A stretch of DNA of 64,000 bases, taken from positions 17,748 to 81,747 of the forward strand of contig DATJOX010000057.1 of assembly GCA_035506675.1 (NCBI GenBank), given 5' to 3'. Below are positions 34,285-61,814 of this stretch, one piece after another. Origin of the DNA: Methanomassiliicoccales archaeon (lineage in GTDB: Archaea; Thermoplasmatota; Thermoplasmata; Methanomassiliicoccales; UBA472). A model generated the notes under the pieces. It was not told where the DNA came from. It searched no databases and saw only the letters and a list, made by a program, of their open reading frames with translations. A program made the translations under genes and the position numbers. Position 1 is the stretch's first letter. Every line of letters begins with the position of its first letter.

Positions 34285-35028
34285 CTACTTGGAGCAGACA
34301 GGGCATTTCTCGTCGCGTTCGACCGGCACGACCTCGAACGAATTGCATTCCAGGTCGACAACCAGGAGCCTCGAAGCGAGAGGCTCGCCGAATCCCGTTA
34401 TCAATTTGATCGCCTCAGACGCCTGAAGCGAGCCTATGAAACCTGCCGCGGCGCCAACCACCGGCGTCTCCCGTGCAAGCGTCGCGGTCTTCGCGAAAAG
34501 GCAACGGAGGCAGGGCGTTCTCCCAGGTATGATCGTCGTCAGCTGGCCGTGCATTCCTTCGACCGCTCCGTGCACGAAGGGCTTGCGGGCAGCGACACAG
34601 CATCCGTTCAACTCCATGCGCGTGTCGAAGTTGTCGGTGCAGTCGAGGATGACATCCGCATCGCCCATCAGCCTGGTCAGGTTGTCCGCGCTCACTCTCT
34701 CTTTCACCAGACGGACTCTGAGATCGGTGTTGAACTGCGTCAGCTTCTCCATCGCGCTCTCGACCTTCAACTGCGCCCCGTGCACGTCCTTCTCCCAGTG
34801 CAGGATTTGCCGGTTCAGATTGCTGAGCTCGACGACCTGATCATCGGCCAAGACCAGTTCTCCCACACCAGCAGCCGCAAGATACAATGCTGCCGGGGAG
34901 CCGAGACCGCCGACCCCAAGCACCCCGACCCTTGCGTCCTTCAGCCTTCGTTGGGCCTTCTCGCCGAACCCTTTCAGGTCAATCTGCCTGCGGAAGCGCG
35001 CTTTCTCGACCTCGGTCAGTCTCTCCAT
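34285..35028 (-). CDS. ThiF/MoeB/HesA E1-like adenylyltransferase (copy 1)
   Basis: RFRRQI, GVGGLG, SNLNRQ, DCTDN, CLRC, CPVC; start ATG 35028. Confidence 0.92.
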   Translation of the reverse strand: MERLTEVEKARFRRQIDLKGFGEKAQRRLKDARVGVLGVGGLGSPAALYLAAAGVGELVLADDQVVELSNLNRQILHWEKDVHGAQLKVESAMEKLTQFNTDLRVRLVKERVSADNLTRLMGDADVILDCTDNFDTRMELNGCCVAARKPFVHGAVEGMHGQLTTIIPGRTPCLRCLFAKTATLARETPVVGAAAGFIGSLQASEAIKLITGFGEPLASRLLVVDLECNSFEVVPVERDEKCPVCSK

Positions 35029-35212
35029 GCCGCTTGTCGAATGCTCCCAGATTTCAATAAATGTTTCCAGAGTCAGGATTTCGCGCACCGGATGGACAGC
35101 ACGATACGTATCGGACGTGACTGAGAACAGATTGCTGGCACTGCGAAATCGCTCAATAATGCAGAAAATGCTCATATAGTGCATTGCTGCTGCAAGCGCA
35201 CAAGGTGCCAAC

Positions 35213-36145
35213 ATGGCAGAAACTGTGATCACGGTCTCCGGCCTCACGAAGAGGTACGGAAGCCTCACCGCCGTCGACGCGATCTCGTTCGAAGTCTACG
35301 CAGGGGAAGTGTTCTCCTTGCTCGGGCCGAACGGAGCGGGCAAGACGACCACCGTCGAGATCCTCGAGTGCCTGCGTCCGAAGACCGCTGGCGACGTCAG
35401 GGTCCTCGGAATGGACATTGACAAGCAGGTGCGAGACATAAAGAAGCGCATCGGCGTACTCCCCCAGGACTTCAACGCCTTCGACCTCTTGACCGTCAAG
35501 GAGAACATCGACTACTTTGGGGACATGTTCGACAAGCGCTTGCCTGCCGACGACCTGATCAAGGCGATGGACCTGGAGGAGAAGCGAAACGAGTGGTTCA
35601 AGAACCTGTCCGGGGGACTCAAGCAGAGGACGGGCGTGGCGATCGCGATGGTCAACGACCCGGATATCGTTTTCCTGGACGAGCCCTCGACCGGTCTCGA
35701 CCCGCGCGCCCGTAGGGATGTCTGGGAGGTCATTCGGAACCTCAAGCAGAAGGGCAAGACCGTCATCCTCACCACCCACTACATGGAGGAGGCGGAGACG
35801 CTCTCCGACCGCCTCGGCATCATCGACCACGGCAAGTTCATCGCGTTCGGAACGCCGCGCGAGATCGTCGACAAGTATGGAACGGGTGCGAGGGTGATCG
35901 TTTCCAATTGCGACAACGTCTGCTGCGACACCCTGAAGGAGCAATGGCCACAGGGCGAGTACAAGGGCAAGGACGCAGTCATCCGTCTGGAGAACAAGAA
36001 CGCGCTCTCTGAGATCGTCTACACCCTCGACCGCTCCGGTGGCAATTACGAGCAGATACAGGTTACCAGGCCAACGCTCGAGGACGTATTCCTCAATCTA
36101 ACTGGACGCAAGATCGCGGAGGAGGCTGCTGCCAATGGCAAATAG
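35213..36145 (+). CDS. ABC-2-type exporter ATP-binding subunit
   Basis: GPNGAGKTT, LSGG, FLDEPSTGLD, TTHY. Confidence 0.95.
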   Translation: MAETVITVSGLTKRYGSLTAVDAISFEVYAGEVFSLLGPNGAGKTTTVEILECLRPKTAGDVRVLGMDIDKQVRDIKKRIGVLPQDFNAFDLLTVKENIDYFGDMFDKRLPADDLIKAMDLEEKRNEWFKNLSGGLKQRTGVAIAMVNDPDIVFLDEPSTGLDPRARRDVWEVIRNLKQKGKTVILTTHYMEEAETLSDRLGIIDHGKFIAFGTPREIVDKYGTGARVIVSNCDNVCCDTLKEQWPQGEYKGKDAVIRLENKNALSEIVYTLDRSGGNYEQIQVTRPTLEDVFLNLTGRKIAEEAAANGK

Positions 36146-54660: not shown

Positions 54661-57225
54661 TCATCGGAACTGCCCGGCGGGCACGAGCATCTCGAACCTT
54701 ACGCCCTTTCCGGGCGTGCCGACCTCCCTCATTGAGATGTTCGACTCAAGAAGGATGTCCCTGCAAAGGTGCATGCCGATTCCCGAGGTATGCGTCACCT
54801 CCTTCAGGAAGATGCTATCCTTCTGCTCTTGGGGGATTCCTGGACCTTCATCCTCGTAGATCAGGAGAAGCTCCCCGTTGTCCCTCTTTGCAGTCAGCCG
54901 TGCGGTGGTTGGGTGCCGCGCGTACTTCACGCTGTCCTCCAGGAGGTTATGGAAGACCAGTTTCAGCATCGGGTCGGCCAGGATCTCGAGCCCGCGCACG
55001 CTGTCGCCGATGTCGAACTTCTCCACATCCTTCAGGATCGGCAGGCTCTCGATGACGCTCTCGACGTTCTGCCACCTCGGCCCCTCCTCACCCGAACCCT
55101 GACCGCGCACGAGCTGCAGCCGCTGATCGATCGCCTCGGTCGCCCCTTCCATCTTCGCTATCCTCGCCGCCACCTTGCCCTGCGAGGTCTCCTTGCCAAG
55201 AAGGAACAGATTCCCCTTGAGGACCGCCAGCTGGTTGCCGACATCGTGCCTGGTGATGTTGTTCAGAAGCTCCAGCCGCGTCATTGCTCGCCTGAGCGAC
55301 AACTCGATGCGCTTGCGGTCGGTGACGTCCTGCACCACCCCGTGGATCTTCAAGACCTTGCCCGCACCATCCATTTCGGCGGTCGTAGTGATCGAGACAG
55401 TCCTCCTGGAATGATTGTCCAGGACCACGTCGTGCTCGATCTGTTTCGAGTAGGTCTTCATGCCTTCGGCCGAGGCCCTCCGCATCCTTTCGCCTTCCCT
55501 CTCGATCATCTTCGACAGCTCTGGCGGGAGGAATCTTTCCGAATATGTCGAGGCCCTCATGGAATATCCTCCCTCTTTCTGCGCTGTCGTGCCAAGGATG
55601 GCGTAGAACCGGTCGTTCAATAGGAAGGTGTTCGTCGTAGGGTCGAAGTCCCAGTGCGCCAGCTGTGCGATATCCATGGCTGCCTCGAGCTGCTGATGAG
55701 CCTCCCTTATCTCGTCCAGCATCAGCTGGTGCTCGGTCATGTCGTGTACGATGCCGGTGACTATCCCTTTGGTGCTATCGAATTCCGCCACGCCATGCAG
55801 GTCAACGATCTTGCCGTCGTTCTGTCGGCGGACCTTGATGCGGACGTCAAGTTTCTCCCCCCGATTGATCAATCCTTCGAGCGCCGAATCCAACATCGCT
55901 CGGGACTCGGGCAAAGGCATCCTCATGATCTCGGCAAGAGTCGCTTTCTGCATGTCCATTCCGAAGAGCTTCATCGCTCCGGACGAGCCCGTGACCGTCC
56001 CGTCCTTCAAATGGATCTCCCAGTGCCCCGCCCCCGCTGCCTCCTCCGCCCGACGGAGCCTTTTCTCGGCCTCCTTGAGAGCATCCTGAGCTCTCCTCCG
56101 CTCCGTAACGTCCCGCGCGATCGCGAGGATAGCTGGCTTTCCGCGATAGTCGATCAACCTCGCGTTAAGCTCGGTCGTGATCAGCTTGCCTTGCTTCGTT
56201 AGCTGCTCCGTCTCGAAGACCGCGTTGCCGTTCTTCAAGACCTCATCGCTGTGACGCATAACCAACAGGGACGATTCGGGTGAATCTATCTGTTCCGGGC
56301 CCATGGCCAGCATCTCCTCCCGCGAGTATCCGAGCATCTTGCAGATCGCGTCGTTCGCCTCGAGGAATCTGCCGCCTGGATAGAATATCAGGATCCCGTC
56401 GTTCGCGCTGTTGAAGATCTCGCGGAACTTCAGCTCGCTCTCGTTCAGCTCCGCTCTCGCTCTTTCCCTCTCGGTGACGTCGGTGTCGGCCCCACGGTAG
56501 CCGAGAAGCGTTCCGTTCGCGTTCACGATGGGAGCGCCACTCGATTCGAGGACAACCTCCCTACCATCCCGGTGCTGATTCTCGTTCAGAAAGCGGCGGA
56601 AAAGGCGCCCTTGCGCGAAGAGTTCCTTCGTAGCCTCGGTGAGCTTCTGCCGTTTGGATGGCACGAAGAAATCGTAGTAGTGGTAGTGCCCGACCACCTC
56701 CTCCGGCGAGTACCCCAGCATGTTCTGGACGGCGGGGCTCGAGTAGATGTACAGACCGTCGGTGTCGACCTCCCAGATCCATTCCTCGCTGCTGTTCGCC
56801 ACCTGTCTGAAGCGCTCCTCGCTCTCCCGAAGAGATGCTTCCGCCTTCCTGCGGTCAGTGATGTCGGAGATAGCATAGATGGTGCCGTGGAACACCCCTT
56901 CTTGGATCATGGGACTAGCGATCACATGAGCCCAGAACTCCGTGCTGTCCAGCCTCCTGAGGCGATAATCCTGGTTACCTGACATTCCGCGTGCGCGGCT
57001 GGCGAGGTTGTTCTTGGCGCGCTGGGCATCCTCGTCCGCGATCAATCCGAGGACCGAACGCCCATTCAACTCCCCATCACCGGCTCCGATCATCTCAAGG
57101 GCGCGCTTGTTGGCGAAAACGATCTTGTGAGCGCGGTCAGTGGCGATGATTCCCTCGCCAATCCCGTTCAGGATCGCTGAATGGGGTAGATCGAGCTCGA
57201 CCAGCATCTCCCGGAGGCCAGTCAT
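54661..57225 (-). CDS. Multi-PAS histidine kinase
   Basis: About five PAS/PAC units, ITRHDVGNQL, EDEGPG, FEMLVP. Confidence 0.9.
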   Translation of the reverse strand: MTGLREMLVELDLPHSAILNGIGEGIIATDRAHKIVFANKRALEMIGAGDGELNGRSVLGLIADEDAQRAKNNLASRARGMSGNQDYRLRRLDSTEFWAHVIASPMIQEGVFHGTIYAISDITDRRKAEASLRESEERFRQVANSSEEWIWEVDTDGLYIYSSPAVQNMLGYSPEEVVGHYHYYDFFVPSKRQKLTEATKELFAQGRLFRRFLNENQHRDGREVVLESSGAPIVNANGTLLGYRGADTDVTERERARAELNESELKFREIFNSANDGILIFYPGGRFLEANDAICKMLGYSREEMLAMGPEQIDSPESSLLVMRHSDEVLKNGNAVFETEQLTKQGKLITTELNARLIDYRGKPAILAIARDVTERRRAQDALKEAEKRLRRAEEAAGAGHWEIHLKDGTVTGSSGAMKLFGMDMQKATLAEIMRMPLPESRAMLDSALEGLINRGEKLDVRIKVRRQNDGKIVDLHGVAEFDSTKGIVTGIVHDMTEHQLMLDEIREAHQQLEAAMDIAQLAHWDFDPTTNTFLLNDRFYAILGTTAQKEGGYSMRASTYSERFLPPELSKMIEREGERMRRASAEGMKTYSKQIEHDVVLDNHSRRTVSITTTAEMDGAGKVLKIHGVVQDVTDRKRIELSLRRAMTRLELLNNITRHDVGNQLAVLKGNLFLLGKETSQGKVAARIAKMEGATEAIDQRLQLVRGQGSGEEGPRWQNVESVIESLPILKDVEKFDIGDSVRGLEILADPMLKLVFHNLLEDSVKYARHPTTARLTAKRDNGELLLIYEDEGPGIPQEQKDSIFLKEVTHTSGIGMHLCRDILLESNISMREVGTPGKGVRFEMLVPAGQFR

Positions 57226-57345: not shown

Positions 57346-57621
57346 TCAGCCGCCCGCCATCGGTGGGAATAGAATGATGTCATCGCCTTCTTTGACTCTC
57401 GTCGCCAGGCCACCGGTCTCTTTCACGCTCTTTCCGTTCACCATCATGCTCACATATGGACGAAGGTCGCCCTCGCTCATCGCCGCTCTCCCGAGCTCTG
57501 GATGCGCCTGCGCAAGCGCGGCGAGAACGTCCCCCGCGGTATCGCCCTTCGCCTCGATCTCCAGCACTTTCTCGCCAGCGATGTAGCGGAATTGACCGAA
57601 CAGCTTCACACTGACCTTCGT
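57346..57621 (-). CDS. MoaD/ThiS/SAMP ubiquitin-like sulfur carrier
   Basis: KVSVKLFGQFR..VNG..FPPMAGG* with C-terminal di-Gly; start either ACG 57621 or GTG 57609. Confidence 0.92.
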   Translation of the reverse strand, partial: TKVSVKLFGQFRYIAGEKVLEIEAKGDTAGDVLAALAQAHPELGRAAMSEGDLRPYVSMMVNGKSVKETGGLATRVKEGDDIILFPPMAGG

Positions 57622-58412
57622 AGGGATCCCCCCTCGCCATGCGGTTCGAGAGAACAGCAGGCACTGCAGCGCGAATCGCGCCTGATCTCCAGCTCGTGGA
57701 ACTCCATGTATTCGCCATCGTATACCAGGAGTCGGTTCTCGAGCGTCCTCCCCACACCCGTGACGACCTTCACCGCCTCCGTGACTTGTAGGGCGCCGAG
57801 AACGCCGGCAGTTGCCCCCAGGATCGGGAAGACCTCCTTCGGCGGGACGTGTGGGAACACGCACTCCAGGCATGGAGTCCTCCCTGGAACGAAAGTTGAC
57901 ATGCGCCCCTCCATACCCCAGACCGAGGCATGGATGAAGGGGATGCGGTGTTTCAATGACGCACGGTTCAGCAGAAACCTCGTGGGGAAGTTGTCCACCG
58001 CGTCGACGATCAGGTCGTGCCCCGCGGTCAGATCTAGAACGTTGCCTTCATCGATCGTGCCCTTGAAAACGTTCACCTCGATGTGCTCGTTGATCTTCAT
58101 CAACTTGTCCCGCCCGCTCTCGACCTTCGGCCTGCCCACATCCTTGTCCCAGTGAAGGATTTGCCTGTTCAGGTTGCTGAGATCCACGACGTCCAGATCC
58201 GCGAGCGTTATGTGCCCGAAACCTGCGACCGCGAGGTAGATCGCGACTGGGCTTCCCAGTCCTCCGGCGCCGGCGACGAAGATCCTCGCGTTCTTGAGCT
58301 TCCGCTGCCCCTCCTCGCCGATGCCCTTGATCAAGATCTGGCGAGCGTATCGCTTGCGGTCGTACTCGTCCAAATCCGCGGTGATGGGTCGACTAGGCGA
58401 TGCCGTCGTCAT
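57606..58412 (-). CDS. ThiF/MoeB E1-like adenylyltransferase (copy 2)
   Basis: RYARQI, GAGGLG, SNLNRQ, DAVDN, CLEC, CSAC; overlaps both neighbours. Confidence 0.93.
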   Translation of the reverse strand: MTTASPSRPITADLDEYDRKRYARQILIKGIGEEGQRKLKNARIFVAGAGGLGSPVAIYLAVAGFGHITLADLDVVDLSNLNRQILHWDKDVGRPKVESGRDKLMKINEHIEVNVFKGTIDEGNVLDLTAGHDLIVDAVDNFPTRFLLNRASLKHRIPFIHASVWGMEGRMSTFVPGRTPCLECVFPHVPPKEVFPILGATAGVLGALQVTEAVKVVTGVGRTLENRLLVYDGEYMEFHELEIRRDSRCSACCSLEPHGEGGSLRRSV

Positions 58413-59340
58413 AGTGAGGCCTCCCAGGATGTGCCTTCCGGATGAACCGGTGCTCGAATATCTCTTTCTCTGGCAGAAGGCGCGAGATATAGCTCATGTC
58501 CTTGAGCACCTTCACGAACACCATGGTCGACTGGACGTACTGGGACGGCAGCGCCGCGCAGTACTTCGGCGACACCTTGTATGTCTCGAGCACGTACTCC
58601 GGATCGACGGTCTGCACGAGGCGGGAAACGATCCTAGCCGCCGCATGTGGGTCCTCCCGAACGAAGGCGCAGGCGCGCTCGTGCTGTTGAAGGAACTTGA
58701 TGACGGTATCATCGTCCCGCATCAGCGACGCGCTCACCAGAATCCCGTAGCTCGGGTTGTATGGCCACAGCTTGCTCGGAGGCACGACGATCTTGGTGTT
58801 CGCAAACCTTCTCGAAGCGACTGCCAGAGGAGGTGTGCCAATGGCCGCCGGAAGCTCTCGGTCGGTGATCGCCTCGAGCACGAAATCCGCCCACTGGTAG
58901 TTCTTGACCTCGATGTCATAGCCAGATTCTCGCACTATGTCCCGCGCGATCACATCGTGGATCGAACCCTTTGGGGGGGTGCCGATTGCCTTTCCGTCGA
59001 ATTGCTTTAGCACCTCGTCGATGCTCCCTAGCTCCTCAAGCCCGAGATATTCGGCCTGCGCGATCATCACCGTGCCTTCGACATGCCCTCCTGCCACGCA
59101 CTTGATCGGCACTCCGCGGGCGATGCCGACCACGGCCGGCGGCAAGCCGAGGTATCCCAGATCAATCATGCCGCCCTCGAATGCTTTGACAATGTCGGGG
59201 CCTGAGGCGAACAGCCTCCATTGGACGTCGAGGCCTTCCTTCTGCAGCCAGTCGACACCCTCCAGGATGAAAGAGGTATGGTAGAAGGTCGAGAGATGGC
59301 CGATGCGTAGGGGCGCGTCGCGCATGCTGATTGGAGGCAC
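58393..59340 (-). CDS. NMT1/THI5/SsuA-fold binding protein lacking a signal peptide
   Basis: LRIGHLSTFYH, FASGPDIVKAF..G.IDLGYLGLPP, TPPKGSIHD, WPYNP; in-frame TGA immediately upstream of the GTG. Confidence 0.85.
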   Translation of the reverse strand: MPPISMRDAPLRIGHLSTFYHTSFILEGVDWLQKEGLDVQWRLFASGPDIVKAFEGGMIDLGYLGLPPAVVGIARGVPIKCVAGGHVEGTVMIAQAEYLGLEELGSIDEVLKQFDGKAIGTPPKGSIHDVIARDIVRESGYDIEVKNYQWADFVLEAITDRELPAAIGTPPLAVASRRFANTKIVVPPSKLWPYNPSYGILVSASLMRDDDTVIKFLQQHERACAFVREDPHAAARIVSRLVQTVDPEYVLETYKVSPKYCAALPSQYVQSTMVFVKVLKDMSYISRLLPEKEIFEHRFIRKAHPGRPHYDDGIA

Positions 59341-59367
59341 TCAGGACGTTCTTCATTGTTTTGTTGC

Positions 59368-59429
59368 GTGGCCCGGAACCCTACATTGATATCTCCGCAT
59401 CTCGCCGAAACTAGGTGGCCCAACCCTAC
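59368..59429. repeat. Direct repeat GTGGCCC(GG)AACCCTAC x2
   Basis: Copies at 59368-59384 and 59415-59429 in the comE intergenic gap. Confidence 0.6.
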
Positions 59430-59477
59430 TGCGCTCGTTGCCGTGGATTTGGTGGGAACCAGCCTTGGGCCATGAAT

Positions 59478-60020
59478 CTAGATCGCTTTTGCGAACCTGC
59501 TGATGATATCCCTCGGCCCCATGGGCACCAGCGGAACATCCGCGTTGCCCGCCTCGACCTCTGCAACGATTGCGCCGGAAGGCATTTCCTTGACAAGCTT
59601 GTGAAGATGAGAGACGGAGGAAGTCCTTCGCACCGGCGCTATACCGGCAGCCTTCGCGAGCTCGCTCAACTTGATCCCGCATGACGATGCGCTCGGCTGG
59701 CAACCCGTCGAGCCATAGACCCCGTTGTCCATGATAACCAGAAGATAGTTGCCCCGGGCCTTGGCGGAGATCGTCGTCAGGCTGCCTAGGTTCATCAGAA
59801 TCGACCCGTCGCCGTCGATCGCTATCACCCTTCTGTCCTCGCGCGCGATCGCCAGGCCAAGACCGATTGAAGATGCCAAGCCCATCGATCCGAGCATATA
59901 GAAATTACGATCGCGATCGGCAACGCGGAACAGCTCCCTCGACGGAAACCCAAGGTTGCACACGATGAGTCCATCACCAGCCGCTTCGGCCACCGCTCGG
60001 ATCGCATCGATGCGTCTCAT
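59478..60020 (-). CDS. comE: Sulfopyruvate decarboxylase beta subunit
   Basis: NFYMLGSMG, DGDGSILMNLG (TPP motif), DNGVYGSTG; ATG 60020 overlaps the comD TGA. Confidence 0.9.
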   Translation of the reverse strand: MRRIDAIRAVAEAAGDGLIVCNLGFPSRELFRVADRDRNFYMLGSMGLASSIGLGLAIAREDRRVIAIDGDGSILMNLGSLTTISAKARGNYLLVIMDNGVYGSTGCQPSASSCGIKLSELAKAAGIAPVRRTSSVSHLHKLVKEMPSGAIVAEVEAGNADVPLVPMGPRDIISRFAKAI

Positions 60021-60517
60021 TGCGACCTCCAGAAGGCATTGTCCAGGAGTATCGCGACCGGCTTCCTCTCCCCTATTGATCGGCTCCAGCCTCCGACGAT
60101 CGCCTGTTCCGCTTCGCCCGGCCCCGGCTTGATCGCCGGAATCCCCATCGATCTCAGCAGCGGCTCCGTCAGCAGGCCCATCGGCACCTGGGCTGAGACC
60201 TCTTCGCCCTCGACCCCCCTGTGACTGACGATTATCAACAACGGGATTCCATAGAGCAGATCGAGCGAGGCGAGGGCGTTGATCGAATTGCCTAGGCCGG
60301 AGTTCTGCATGAGCAGTGCTGGCTTCATCCCGCCCAGGTACGCGCCGGCGCATATCCCGACACCCTCCTCTTCCCTCGAGACCGCGAGATGCCGGATCGA
60401 CGTGTCGGCCTCGATGAGAGCTATCAGATCAGTCAGGTTGACGCAGGGCACGCTGGTGACTATGCCTATGCCGATCTTCTTCATCCCGGAGAAGACCTCG
60501 TTCGCTTGAGCATTCAC
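60017..60517 (-). CDS. comD: Sulfopyruvate decarboxylase alpha subunit
   Basis: VPC, REEEGVGICAGAYLGG, LMQNSGLGN, HRG. Confidence 0.9.
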   Translation of the reverse strand: MNAQANEVFSGMKKIGIGIVTSVPCVNLTDLIALIEADTSIRHLAVSREEEGVGICAGAYLGGMKPALLMQNSGLGNSINALASLDLLYGIPLLIIVSHRGVEGEEVSAQVPMGLLTEPLLRSMGIPAIKPGPGEAEQAIVGGWSRSIGERKPVAILLDNAFWRSQ

Positions 60518-60557
60518 TTGCAGTCACCCGAGCCATGGAGTATCATGCTCTCATGCC

Positions 60558-61814
60558 TCAAGCGGCACACCTCCTCAACTCCCTTTGCACATCGGAGGCG
60601 AGCGCCTTGACATCTGCTCCTGCTTTCTTAACCTTGAGATCGAAATGCAGTTGCGTCACACCTCGCTCCGCCCTGAGCAACCTCTCTCCCCCACCAGTAA
60701 TGTTCAGCAGCACGACGTCTTCCGGGCCGACGCTTCCAGATTCGGCCGACTTCACCAAAGCGGCGACCGCGATCGCCGCCGCCGGCATAACGTCTACGCC
60801 CTCCGCTCTCTCGAAGAGCCTACGAGCGCGTTCTGCCTCGTCATTCGTGATTCCCTGGACAGACCCATGAGTGGATTTGAGGGCATCAATCACCCCTCCC
60901 TTCTGCGTGATCGGCGGCCTGCGGTTGAACAGCACCTCATCGTACATCCCCTTCGGGCATGCGGGATCGATCACGGCGTCCTTCAGAGCGGCGAGTATCG
61001 GCGCACAAGGCAGGTTCTGCGCAAGGTCCAGTACCGGCATCGCGCTCCCGAACCGCCCGTCCCGAATCAACCTCATCGACGCCTCCCAAGCGGCGATCGC
61101 TCCGGTCGCGCTCCCCACCGCCTGAACGTAGCGGTCCGGGATCCGGCCGATGGTGAGCGCTGCCTCCAGCATCACCGTCCCCATCCCGTCCCTTCGCGCG
61201 ATGTTCCTTGCCCCTCCCTCCGGGACGAAACCCTCTAGGCATGCGAGCTGTTCAGCGAGGACGATCGCGTCCGTGTAGTCGCCATCGACCGCAATCGTGC
61301 AAATTGTCTCGTGTCGTGATCCTTCGCCAGGCAACCATATCTTGTTCATCGCTGTAGCCGGCACCACCAGCGCCAGAGGTCGTCGGGTGACTGAGCAGGC
61401 GTGCGCGAATGCTCGACCGGTGTTCCCGGCGGAGGCGACGACGAGGATGTCCTCTTTCCCTTTTTCGATGAGACGCTCGACCGTCGGCGCCGCCTCCAGC
61501 TCTTTGAAGCTGCAGGTATGGAAAAGGGCGTTCTTGTCAGGCCAATAGCCATTGAACGATACGAACAGGTGCTTGATGCCGACCTCGGAGGCGAAGCCCT
61601 CGCTACGATAGGTCACGCTTCTTCCGTTCAACGCGGGAATGATGTCATTGGTCGGCAACCAGTCGAGGAACTTCCACATGCCAGGAAGATCCCTCGGAGT
61701 CAATCGGATCGCCGAATACTCGGCCCTGAGGAAGTGTGGATCGCTCGGACATGTGATCGCATGCTGGTCGCATTCGGAGCTGCAGCCCAGACAGCGCACG
61801 ACGTACTTCTTCAT
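60558..61814 (-). CDS. Cysteate synthase (threonine synthase-like, PLP)
   Basis: NGYWP, TCSFKELEA (PLP Lys), ASAGNTGRAFA, EGGARN, VLLNITGGG; adjacent to comDE. Confidence 0.9.
   Translation of the reverse strand: MKKYVVRCLGCSSECDQHAITCPSDPHFLRAEYSAIRLTPRDLPGMWKFLDWLPTNDIIPALNGRSVTYRSEGFASEVGIKHLFVSFNGYWPDKNALFHTCSFKELEAAPTVERLIEKGKEDILVVASAGNTGRAFAHACSVTRRPLALVVPATAMNKIWLPGEGSRHETICTIAVDGDYTDAIVLAEQLACLEGFVPEGGARNIARRDGMGTVMLEAALTIGRIPDRYVQAVGSATGAIAAWEASMRLIRDGRFGSAMPVLDLAQNLPCAPILAALKDAVIDPACPKGMYDEVLFNRRPPITQKGGVIDALKSTHGSVQGITNDEAERARRLFERAEGVDVMPAAAIAVAALVKSAESGSVGPEDVVLLNITGGGERLLRAERGVTQLHFDLKVKKAGADVKALASDVQRELRRCAA

Follow-up and report, generated by a model that had tools for sequence, protein, structure and literature searches.

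A binding-protein-fold family linked to coenzyme M biosynthesis genes in archaea and its possible supply of sulfur by a ubiquitin-like carrier

All biological methane formation and the anaerobic oxidation of methane (AOM) rely on coenzyme M (CoM), and the last step of its biosynthesis is the least settled part of the pathway. For this conversion of sulfoacetaldehyde to CoM, the methanogenesis marker 16 metalloprotein MMP16 (ComF) has only recently been argued to be the main synthase (PMC12068725). Table S1 of that paper leaves Methanocella (M. conradii and M. paludicola), Methanoregula boonei and Methanoperedens (M. nitroreducens) with the precursor genes for sulfoacetaldehyde and without MMP16, and no explanation is offered for them. 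Here we describe a cluster in a window of 64,000 nucleotides from a Methanomassiliicoccales archaeon (assembly GCA_035506675.1, contig DATJOX010000057.1, positions 17,748 to 81,747), in which three genes of CoM biosynthesis are followed by the genes of a cytoplasmic protein with the TauA/SsuA fold (SBP hereafter), a ThiF/MoeB/UbaA-type E1 adenylyltransferase (E1) and a SAMP1/MoaD-type ubiquitin-like sulfur carrier (Ubl). We suggest that this is a remodelled CoM operon in which SBP, a protein non-orthologous to MMP16/ComF, thiolates sulfoacetaldehyde and the E1-Ubl pair supplies the sulfur; we favour this reading tentatively and give it a little less than an even chance. The paper on MMP16 makes no mention of SBP, ThiF or ubiquitin-like proteins, and in the literature library searched, nothing relevant was found on SBP, ThiF or sulfonate binding tied to CoM biosynthesis.

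The six-gene cluster and the genome that carries it

The six genes all lie on the minus strand, co-oriented as the initial annotation had read them, and all of them matched protein profiles. Cysteate synthase (CS), which makes cysteate from O-phosphoserine and sulfite, is encoded at 60558-61814; the protein is full-length and scored 519 bits with TIGR03844 over residues 4-395, above the equivalog cut-off of 324.9. The alpha and beta subunits of sulfopyruvate decarboxylase follow as adjacent genes, ComD at 60017-60517 (TIGR03845, 203.5 bits, cut-off 147.95) and ComE at 59478-60020 (TIGR03846, 223.5 bits, marginally over the cut-off of 221.5), both above their curated cut-offs. SBP, a member of the NMT1_2 family (50 bits) with 310-315 aa, is encoded at 58393-59325 if it starts at the ATG, which is the probable start, or from a GTG at 59340. 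Then come E1 (57606-58412, 268 aa; PF00899, 247 bits) and Ubl (57346-57609, 87 aa; PF02597, 60 bits). CS and ComD are 40 nt apart, and the stop codon of ComD overlaps the ATG of ComE. The overlap of the last three genes was likewise borne out, with SBP and E1 sharing 20 nt and the TGA of E1 overlapping the GTG start of Ubl. We regard these gene identities and the operon structure as established.

The only sizeable gap in the cluster is the ComE-SBP spacer (59326-59477, minus strand), which measures 137 nt up to the GTG of SBP and 152 nt up to its ATG. The spacer shows no stretch of four T or longer, and no archaeal promoter could be called from its sequence. In a relative with about 93% identity, from a peat metagenome (run X3), a single contig runs from ComE into SBP, and its spacer is 94 nt shorter; the missing part corresponds to 59383-59478 of the window, leaving a gap of about 43-58 nt. 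In a second run, from a wetland, mismatch-free short contigs fall on the region around the start of SBP, on the stretch that SBP shares with E1 and on the Ubl gene. Given the contig of the peat relative and the exact contigs of the wetland run, the junction of ComE with SBP was not created by the assembly.

The genome (1.97 Mb in 61 contigs, 99% complete) belongs to an order of small genomes, and the runs that contain this sequence are wetland and peat metagenomes. The absence of a ComF gene noted earlier holds for the cluster, in which no protein matched MMP16 (TIGR03287, COG1900), and for the window. It does not hold for the genome, which encodes a canonical MMP16 on another contig (C19:6991-8187; 452 bits, cut-off 364) next to a cysK-like gene, so that an organism without ComF was ruled out. 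A second COG1900 protein is encoded on contig C13.

Relatives of the same order arrange their CoM genes in two layouts. One is CS, ATPase, GTPase, iron-sulfur (FeS) protein, ComD and ComE, followed by a convergent MMP16; the other is MMP16, CS and ComDE. Compared with loci L132-L136, CS in our genome abuts ComD, MMP16 is unlinked, and SBP-E1-Ubl stands after ComE. The trio of ATPase, HypB-like GTPase and COG2000 FeS protein, which Chadwick et al. 2025 (PMC12068725) found co-localised with CoM genes, was not found anywhere in this genome. Judged by gene order, the trio is lost and the CoM locus is rearranged exactly at CS-ComD and after ComE.

The closest relatives of CS, ComD, ComE and MMP16 are same-order genes with 47-63% identity (54-58% for the best relatives of CS and 58-63% for ComD). 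SBP is closest to Methanocellaceae (63-66% identity), and none was found in the other sampled genomes of the order; of 400 further genomes sampled from the phylum, 399 had none either. Joint acquisition of the whole six-gene cluster was ruled out on these grounds. A transfer of the SBP-E1-Ubl block from Methanocellales is possible from the sequence comparisons, in which E1 and Ubl resemble the pairs of the Methanomassiliicoccus luminyensis type to about the same extent: E1 shares 71-73% identity with the E1 beside SBP in Methanocella and 76% with that of M. luminyensis, its closest named homologue, and the closest same-order E1-Ubl pairs scored 432 and 105-108 bits.

The SBP family and its link to CoM genes

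SBP is tied to com genes in several lineages. CS, ComDE and SBP form a contiguous, abutting and co-directional unit in 8 genomes of a divergent Archaeoglobi-type clade (L138-L144, L151), whose closest named proteins come from Geoglobus and other Archaeoglobi. The same operon occurs in one Hydrothermarchaeales genome (L090 7627-10951), and in Hecatella SBP is divergently adjacent to the com genes (L034 7555-10933), a locus that also adjoins hemL, hemC, cobA and hemD. At 18 Methanoregula loci SBP lies about 2.7 kb from CS-ComDE, with the ATPase, the HypB-like GTPase and the COG2000 FeS protein between them. CS was found within 3 kb of SBP at 30 of the 107 SBP loci and MMP16 within 9 kb at none. 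On the SBP tree, adjacency to com genes requires at least 4-5 separate placements, the deepest branches included. The Hydrothermarchaeales operon is preceded by genes for an MtaA-like URO-D methyltransferase, a corrinoid protein, RACo and MtrH, which make up the kind of system that methylates CoM.

Other neighbours of SBP were an MfnA-like gene with PEP synthase in M. conradii and aroE with tyrA in Methanoperedens. We set aside a role in methanofuran or aromatic amino acid synthesis, because such neighbours are confined to their own lineages, whereas com genes accompany SBP in one phylum after another. At ten Methanoperedens loci (e.g. L031 12283-13353) and in Hecatella (L034 5979-7070), a DUF362 protein that contains a 4Fe-4S domain is encoded 1.4-3 kb from SBP; it could be an electron-donating partner for SBP, or its proximity could be coincidental. 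In addition, DUF2099, which is methanogenesis marker protein 8 (TIGR03275, 329 bits), stands directly beside SBP or E1-Ubl in several lineages (L014 8976-9809; L020 11072-11902; L161 7388-8206; L164 6379-7200).

The distribution of the family relative to MMP16 was examined by a search for CS, MMP16 and SBP in 401 genomes of the phylum of Methanoregula. CS was present in 191 genomes. MMP16 accompanied it in 153 of them, and 28 of these had SBP as well; of the 38 without MMP16, SBP was present in 34 and missing from 4. SBP was found in 68 genomes altogether, 62 of which had CS. Among the CS-positive genomes SBP and MMP16 thus tended to exclude each other (34/38 against 28/153; Fisher odds ratio 0.026, p = 2e-16), although this test ignores kinship and the data may contain perhaps 6-10 independent contrasts. 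Several genomes with SBP had no COG1900 protein whatever. The independent Table S1 of PMC12068725, with its four species that have the sulfoacetaldehyde genes and no MMP16, is in agreement with this distribution. The role of catalyst or substrate holder that had been offered for the binding-fold protein is well supported by the com operons and by this distribution, and we consider it somewhat probable that SBP is an MMP16-independent component of the step from sulfoacetaldehyde to CoM, most likely the enzyme itself. Because MMP16 and SBP coexist in many genomes, SBP is no simple replacement of MMP16. The two may instead be condition-specific routes, using, for example, free sulfide in one and protein-bound sulfur in the other.

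The AF2 model of SBP (pLDDT 87.6) was compared with solved structures by Foldseek, which placed TauA at the top, followed by 3UN6 and SsuA and then by the enzyme Thi5. The matches to the TauA/SsuA structures had an E value of 7e-16 and TM scores of 0.72-0.79 at about 16% identity. With TauA as the top structural match, the modelled fold fits a C2 sulfonate as ligand. In sequence, SBP scored 84 bits with SsuA_fam (TIGR01728, cut-off 163.5) and 30 bits with the TauA model (cut-off 304), below both cut-offs. Neither SBP nor the aligned members have a signal peptide, since the N-terminus runs straight into strand 1; SBP has no lipobox, and no permease or ATPase transporter partner is encoded nearby. 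A transporter was ruled out by the missing signal peptide, the missing permease and ATPase partners and the sub-cut-off SsuA score.

Homologues with 50-68% identity occur in Methanocellaceae, Methanoperedens, Methanoregula, ANME-2, Hecatella and Hydrothermarchaeales, and a more divergent branch occurs in Archaeoglobi, including Geoglobus acetivorans. An alignment of 26 sequences from all SBP lineages has 53 invariant columns, among them H16, H81, H123, H215, H299, H304, C76, C256, D55, E83, D124 and E216, and has no invariant Lys. This pattern looks like that of a catalytic or metal site and not like that of a transport receptor. We regard the fold, the conservation, the synteny and the distribution of the family as established.

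The nearest solved structures are nevertheless transport binding proteins, and this would suit a non-catalytic sulfonate binder, be it a sensor, a remnant of an uptake system for CoM or sulfonates, or a cytoplasmic holder that keeps CoM or the reactive sulfoacetaldehyde sequestered, with the thiolation left to MMP16, L-ASST or an uncatalysed reaction with sulfide. The presence of both MMP16 and a second COG1900 protein in this genome is in line with it, and an uncatalysed back-up reaction was not excluded by Chadwick et al. (PMC12068725). However, a binder of this kind would hardly be expected to lack both a signal peptide or lipobox and any permease or ATPase partner, to keep six His, two Cys and four acidic residues invariant from Archaeoglobi to the Thermoproteota-type Hecatella and to Methanocellales, to be built into biosynthetic operons, and to be present in genomes without any COG1900 protein (see also Table S1 of PMC12068725). 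We therefore consider it improbable.

SBP follows CS closely (62 of 68 carriers), and the CS-ComDE-SBP operon does not include the aminotransferase step. It could thus be thought that SBP works elsewhere in the cysteate route, in the supply or handling of sulfite for CS or in the conversion of cysteate to sulfopyruvate, or that organisms without methyl-CoM reductase turn sulfoacetaldehyde into another end product. Thi5, an enzyme with the NMT1 fold, binds pyridoxal phosphate (PLP), and Geoglobus, Hydrothermarchaeales and Hecatella, all of which have SBP beside com genes, are lineages for which neither methyl-CoM reductase nor a use for CoM is known. But an upstream role leaves the concentration of SBP in MMP16-less genomes unexplained, an invariant Lys that could hold PLP is missing, and the Hydrothermarchaeales operon follows genes of the MtaA-like methyltransferase system. 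Among the explanations considered here, this one appears the least likely to us.

E1, Ubl and the supply of sulfur

E1 has two CxxC motifs and no rhodanese domain. It scored below every specific equivalog cut-off (MoeB, 280 of 449 bits; UbaA, 232 of 450; ThiF, 213 of 275), so that only membership in the family at large can be assigned. Ubl exceeded the cut-offs of the SAMP1 model NF041918 (83.2 bits, cut-off 60) and of MoaD_arch (74.8 bits, cut-off 49.5) and ends in PPMAGG, with the Gly-Gly terminus. Among 23 sampled genomes of the organism's family, only this one had a strong full-length SAMP1-type match. The familiar partners of such a carrier were not found in this genome: MoaE (PF02391) had no match at E <= 1, and ThiG gave only partial matches of at most 33 bits at profile positions of about 160-230, while the control genomes gave matches to MoaE and 14 of 14 control genomes matched ThiG. 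The use of Ubl by MoaE or ThiG is thus rejected for this organism.

The genome has three E1 genes and two ThiS-family genes, the latter being the cluster Ubl and a small GG-ending protein on contig C59 (C59:69982-70164), upstream of what we take to be dnaG and lon. A stand-alone MoeB/UbaA-like E1 is encoded in the window at 34285-35268 (minus strand). This E1 and the small C59 protein are probably the housekeeping pair, serving tRNA thiolation or protein modification. The genes that were looked at included no evident JAMM protease, although no search was aimed at it. On the same strand and 120 nt downstream of the Ubl gene, the window encodes a multi-PAS histidine kinase of 854 aa (54661-57225); no response regulator was noticed next to it.

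SBP-E1-Ubl triads occur in this window and at loci L021, L071, L163, L164 and L165, with Methanocellaceae-type contigs recurrent among them, and they are spread over two distinct SBP clades. On several contigs of 4-12 kb, homologues of SBP and of E1 likewise appear to occur together. Locus L071 of Methanocella begins with IscS and IscU, continues with the triad SBP-E1-Ubl and goes on to ATPase, GTPase and COG2000 FeS protein, and at two Methanoregula loci (L066, L081) E1-Ubl stands beside ComDE. Within the six-gene set, SBP is tied to com genes, and SBP-E1-Ubl recurs in several lineages, but the closest E1-Ubl pairs adjoin CysK/CBS-like genes. For the proposal that the thiocarboxylate of Ubl (Ubl-COSH) donates the CoM thiol, the triads and the lack of MoaE and ThiG are favourable, and the presence of MMP16, the CysK/CBS links and the many SBP loci without E1 or Ubl are not. 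That the Ubl thiocarboxylate is the sulfur donor for SBP is in our opinion quite possible, but we stop short of calling it probable.

Several points weigh against the remodelled operon as we read it. The cluster encodes no reductase, and the spacer between ComE and SBP might contain a promoter. SBP has no invariant Lys, which makes a Schiff-base mechanism unlikely. The distribution statistics ignore phylogeny, with an estimated 6-10 independent contrasts only, and MMP16 is present in this genome as well as in 28 of the 62 genomes with CS and SBP. The operon in archaea without known methyl-CoM reductase means that the product could be a different sulfonate. As regards the sulfur, E1 or Ubl was found within 9 kb of SBP at only 12-14 of the 107 loci, and neither lies nearby in Methanoperedens or in the CS-ComDE-SBP operons of Archaeoglobi. 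E1 belongs to a broad orthologous group that spans Methanocella, Methanospirillum and Methanomassiliicoccus at 58-79% identity. Its closest same-order relatives are followed, together with their Ubl, by a CBS/CysK-like gene of the PALP family in an M. luminyensis-like locus (L160 7361-9841), and by CBS/CysK-like and cystathionine gamma-synthase (CGS)-like genes in genome G846 (L161 7388-11959); at L164 (10077-13647) SBP, E1, Ubl, PALP and CGS stand in a row. In Methanomassiliicoccales, E1-Ubl with PALP and CGS looks, from gene order, like a thiocarboxylate route of the CysO/CysM type that leads to cysteine or homocysteine, and the E1-Ubl pair may serve that synthesis, or several acceptors.

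The same observations on E1 and Ubl are those expected if SBP belongs to the CoM pathway and E1-Ubl is a general relay, whether for protein modification, for the thiolation of tRNA or for a CysO/CysM-like synthesis of cysteine or homocysteine, that came to stand after SBP by co-transfer or rearrangement. However, this genome has no orthologue of the PALP gene that adjoins E1 elsewhere, its best matches being two ordinary CysK-like paralogues. Moreover, the genes of SBP, E1 and Ubl overlap each other here, the triad is found in two separate SBP clades, and E1-Ubl adjoins ComDE in the two Methanoregula loci. A general relay is thus a serious alternative, though on balance we think it rather unlikely.

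Proposed route, significance and comparison with known systems

If the remodelled CoM operon works as we suggest, CS, an unlinked aminotransferase and ComDE would produce sulfoacetaldehyde, functions that are annotated from their families. SBP would bind this C2 sulfonate and would either catalyse the replacement of the aldehyde by a thiol or be indispensable for it. E1 would adenylate the C-terminus of Ubl, and the adenylate would become Ubl-COSH by reaction with a persulfide donor like IscS or ThiI. The thiocarboxylate might then attack sulfoacetaldehyde in the cleft of SBP, and an acyl shift and an elimination would give a thioaldehyde that is reduced to CoM. The reductant could be the two invariant cysteines of SBP or an external Fe-S protein, which is pure speculation. 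Every chemical step beyond sulfoacetaldehyde we infer.

Taken more broadly, the NMT1_2/TauA-fold family could be an unrecognised, MMP16-independent CoM synthase for Methanocella, Methanoregula, Methanoperedens and ANME-2, fed in some lineages by a dedicated Ubl thiocarboxylate. In that case, the operons of Geoglobus, Hydrothermarchaeales and Hecatella would imply that archaea without methyl-CoM reductase, too, make CoM or a thiol-sulfonate close to it. We put this general form forward with some reserve, as an idea that has somewhat more against it than for it at present. If it is true, a distinct enzyme family completes the CoM pathway for major archaea of wetlands, rice fields and AOM, and the chemistry of Ubl sulfur carriers gains a new type of acceptor. 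The SBP route might explain CoM synthesis in wetland and peat habitats, which are perhaps low in sulfide, and the com-SBP operons outside methanogens would open the possibility that CoM or some other C2 sulfonate has a role beyond methane metabolism. Because a CoM-auxotrophic MMP16 deletion mutant of M. acetivorans already exists, the role of SBP in CoM synthesis is directly testable.

Among the known systems, TauA and SsuA are the best fold and sequence matches of SBP, and they bind C2 sulfonates whose chemistry resembles that of CoM and sulfoacetaldehyde. SBP differs from them in its low identity of about 16%, in scoring below the family cut-off and in having neither a signal peptide nor transporter partners; it carries invariant His, Cys and acidic residues and is encoded in biosynthetic operons, so that the fold alone is common to both. 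Thi5/NMT1 and MqnA/MqnD, which are also among the structural matches, demonstrate that the binding-protein fold can be catalytic. Their substrates and chemistry are different, and the Lys/His PLP site of Thi5 has no counterpart in SBP because SBP has no invariant Lys.

With the Ubl relays (ThiS-ThiF-ThiG, MoaD-MoeB-MoaE, CysO-MoeZ-CysM, HcyS-HcyF-MetY and QbsE-QbsC), the cluster shares an E1 gene translationally coupled to a gene for a GG-ending beta-grasp protein and a candidate acceptor enzyme encoded alongside, and in Methanocella IscS and IscU lie just upstream. In contrast, an acceptor with a binding-protein fold is not known in any such relay, and here an aldehyde would be converted to a thiol that is a small molecule, a conversion that takes a net reduction by two electrons. 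The cluster E1 also has no rhodanese domain, and the thiocarboxylate is putative here, suggested by the adjacency and overlaps of the genes.

MMP16/ComF is the closest comparison. It has a COG1900 fold with a ferredoxin-like part, whereas SBP has the fold of a class II periplasmic binding protein, and its function is backed by genetic evidence (PMC12068725), whereas that of SBP is a proposal from sequences. SBP is concentrated in genomes without MMP16, yet both are present in 28 of the sampled genomes and in this one. Nevertheless, the reaction for which MMP16 has been put forward, from sulfoacetaldehyde to CoM, is the one that we propose for SBP, and both proteins cluster with CS and ComDE and have the same ATPase, HypB-like GTPase and COG2000 FeS protein as neighbours.

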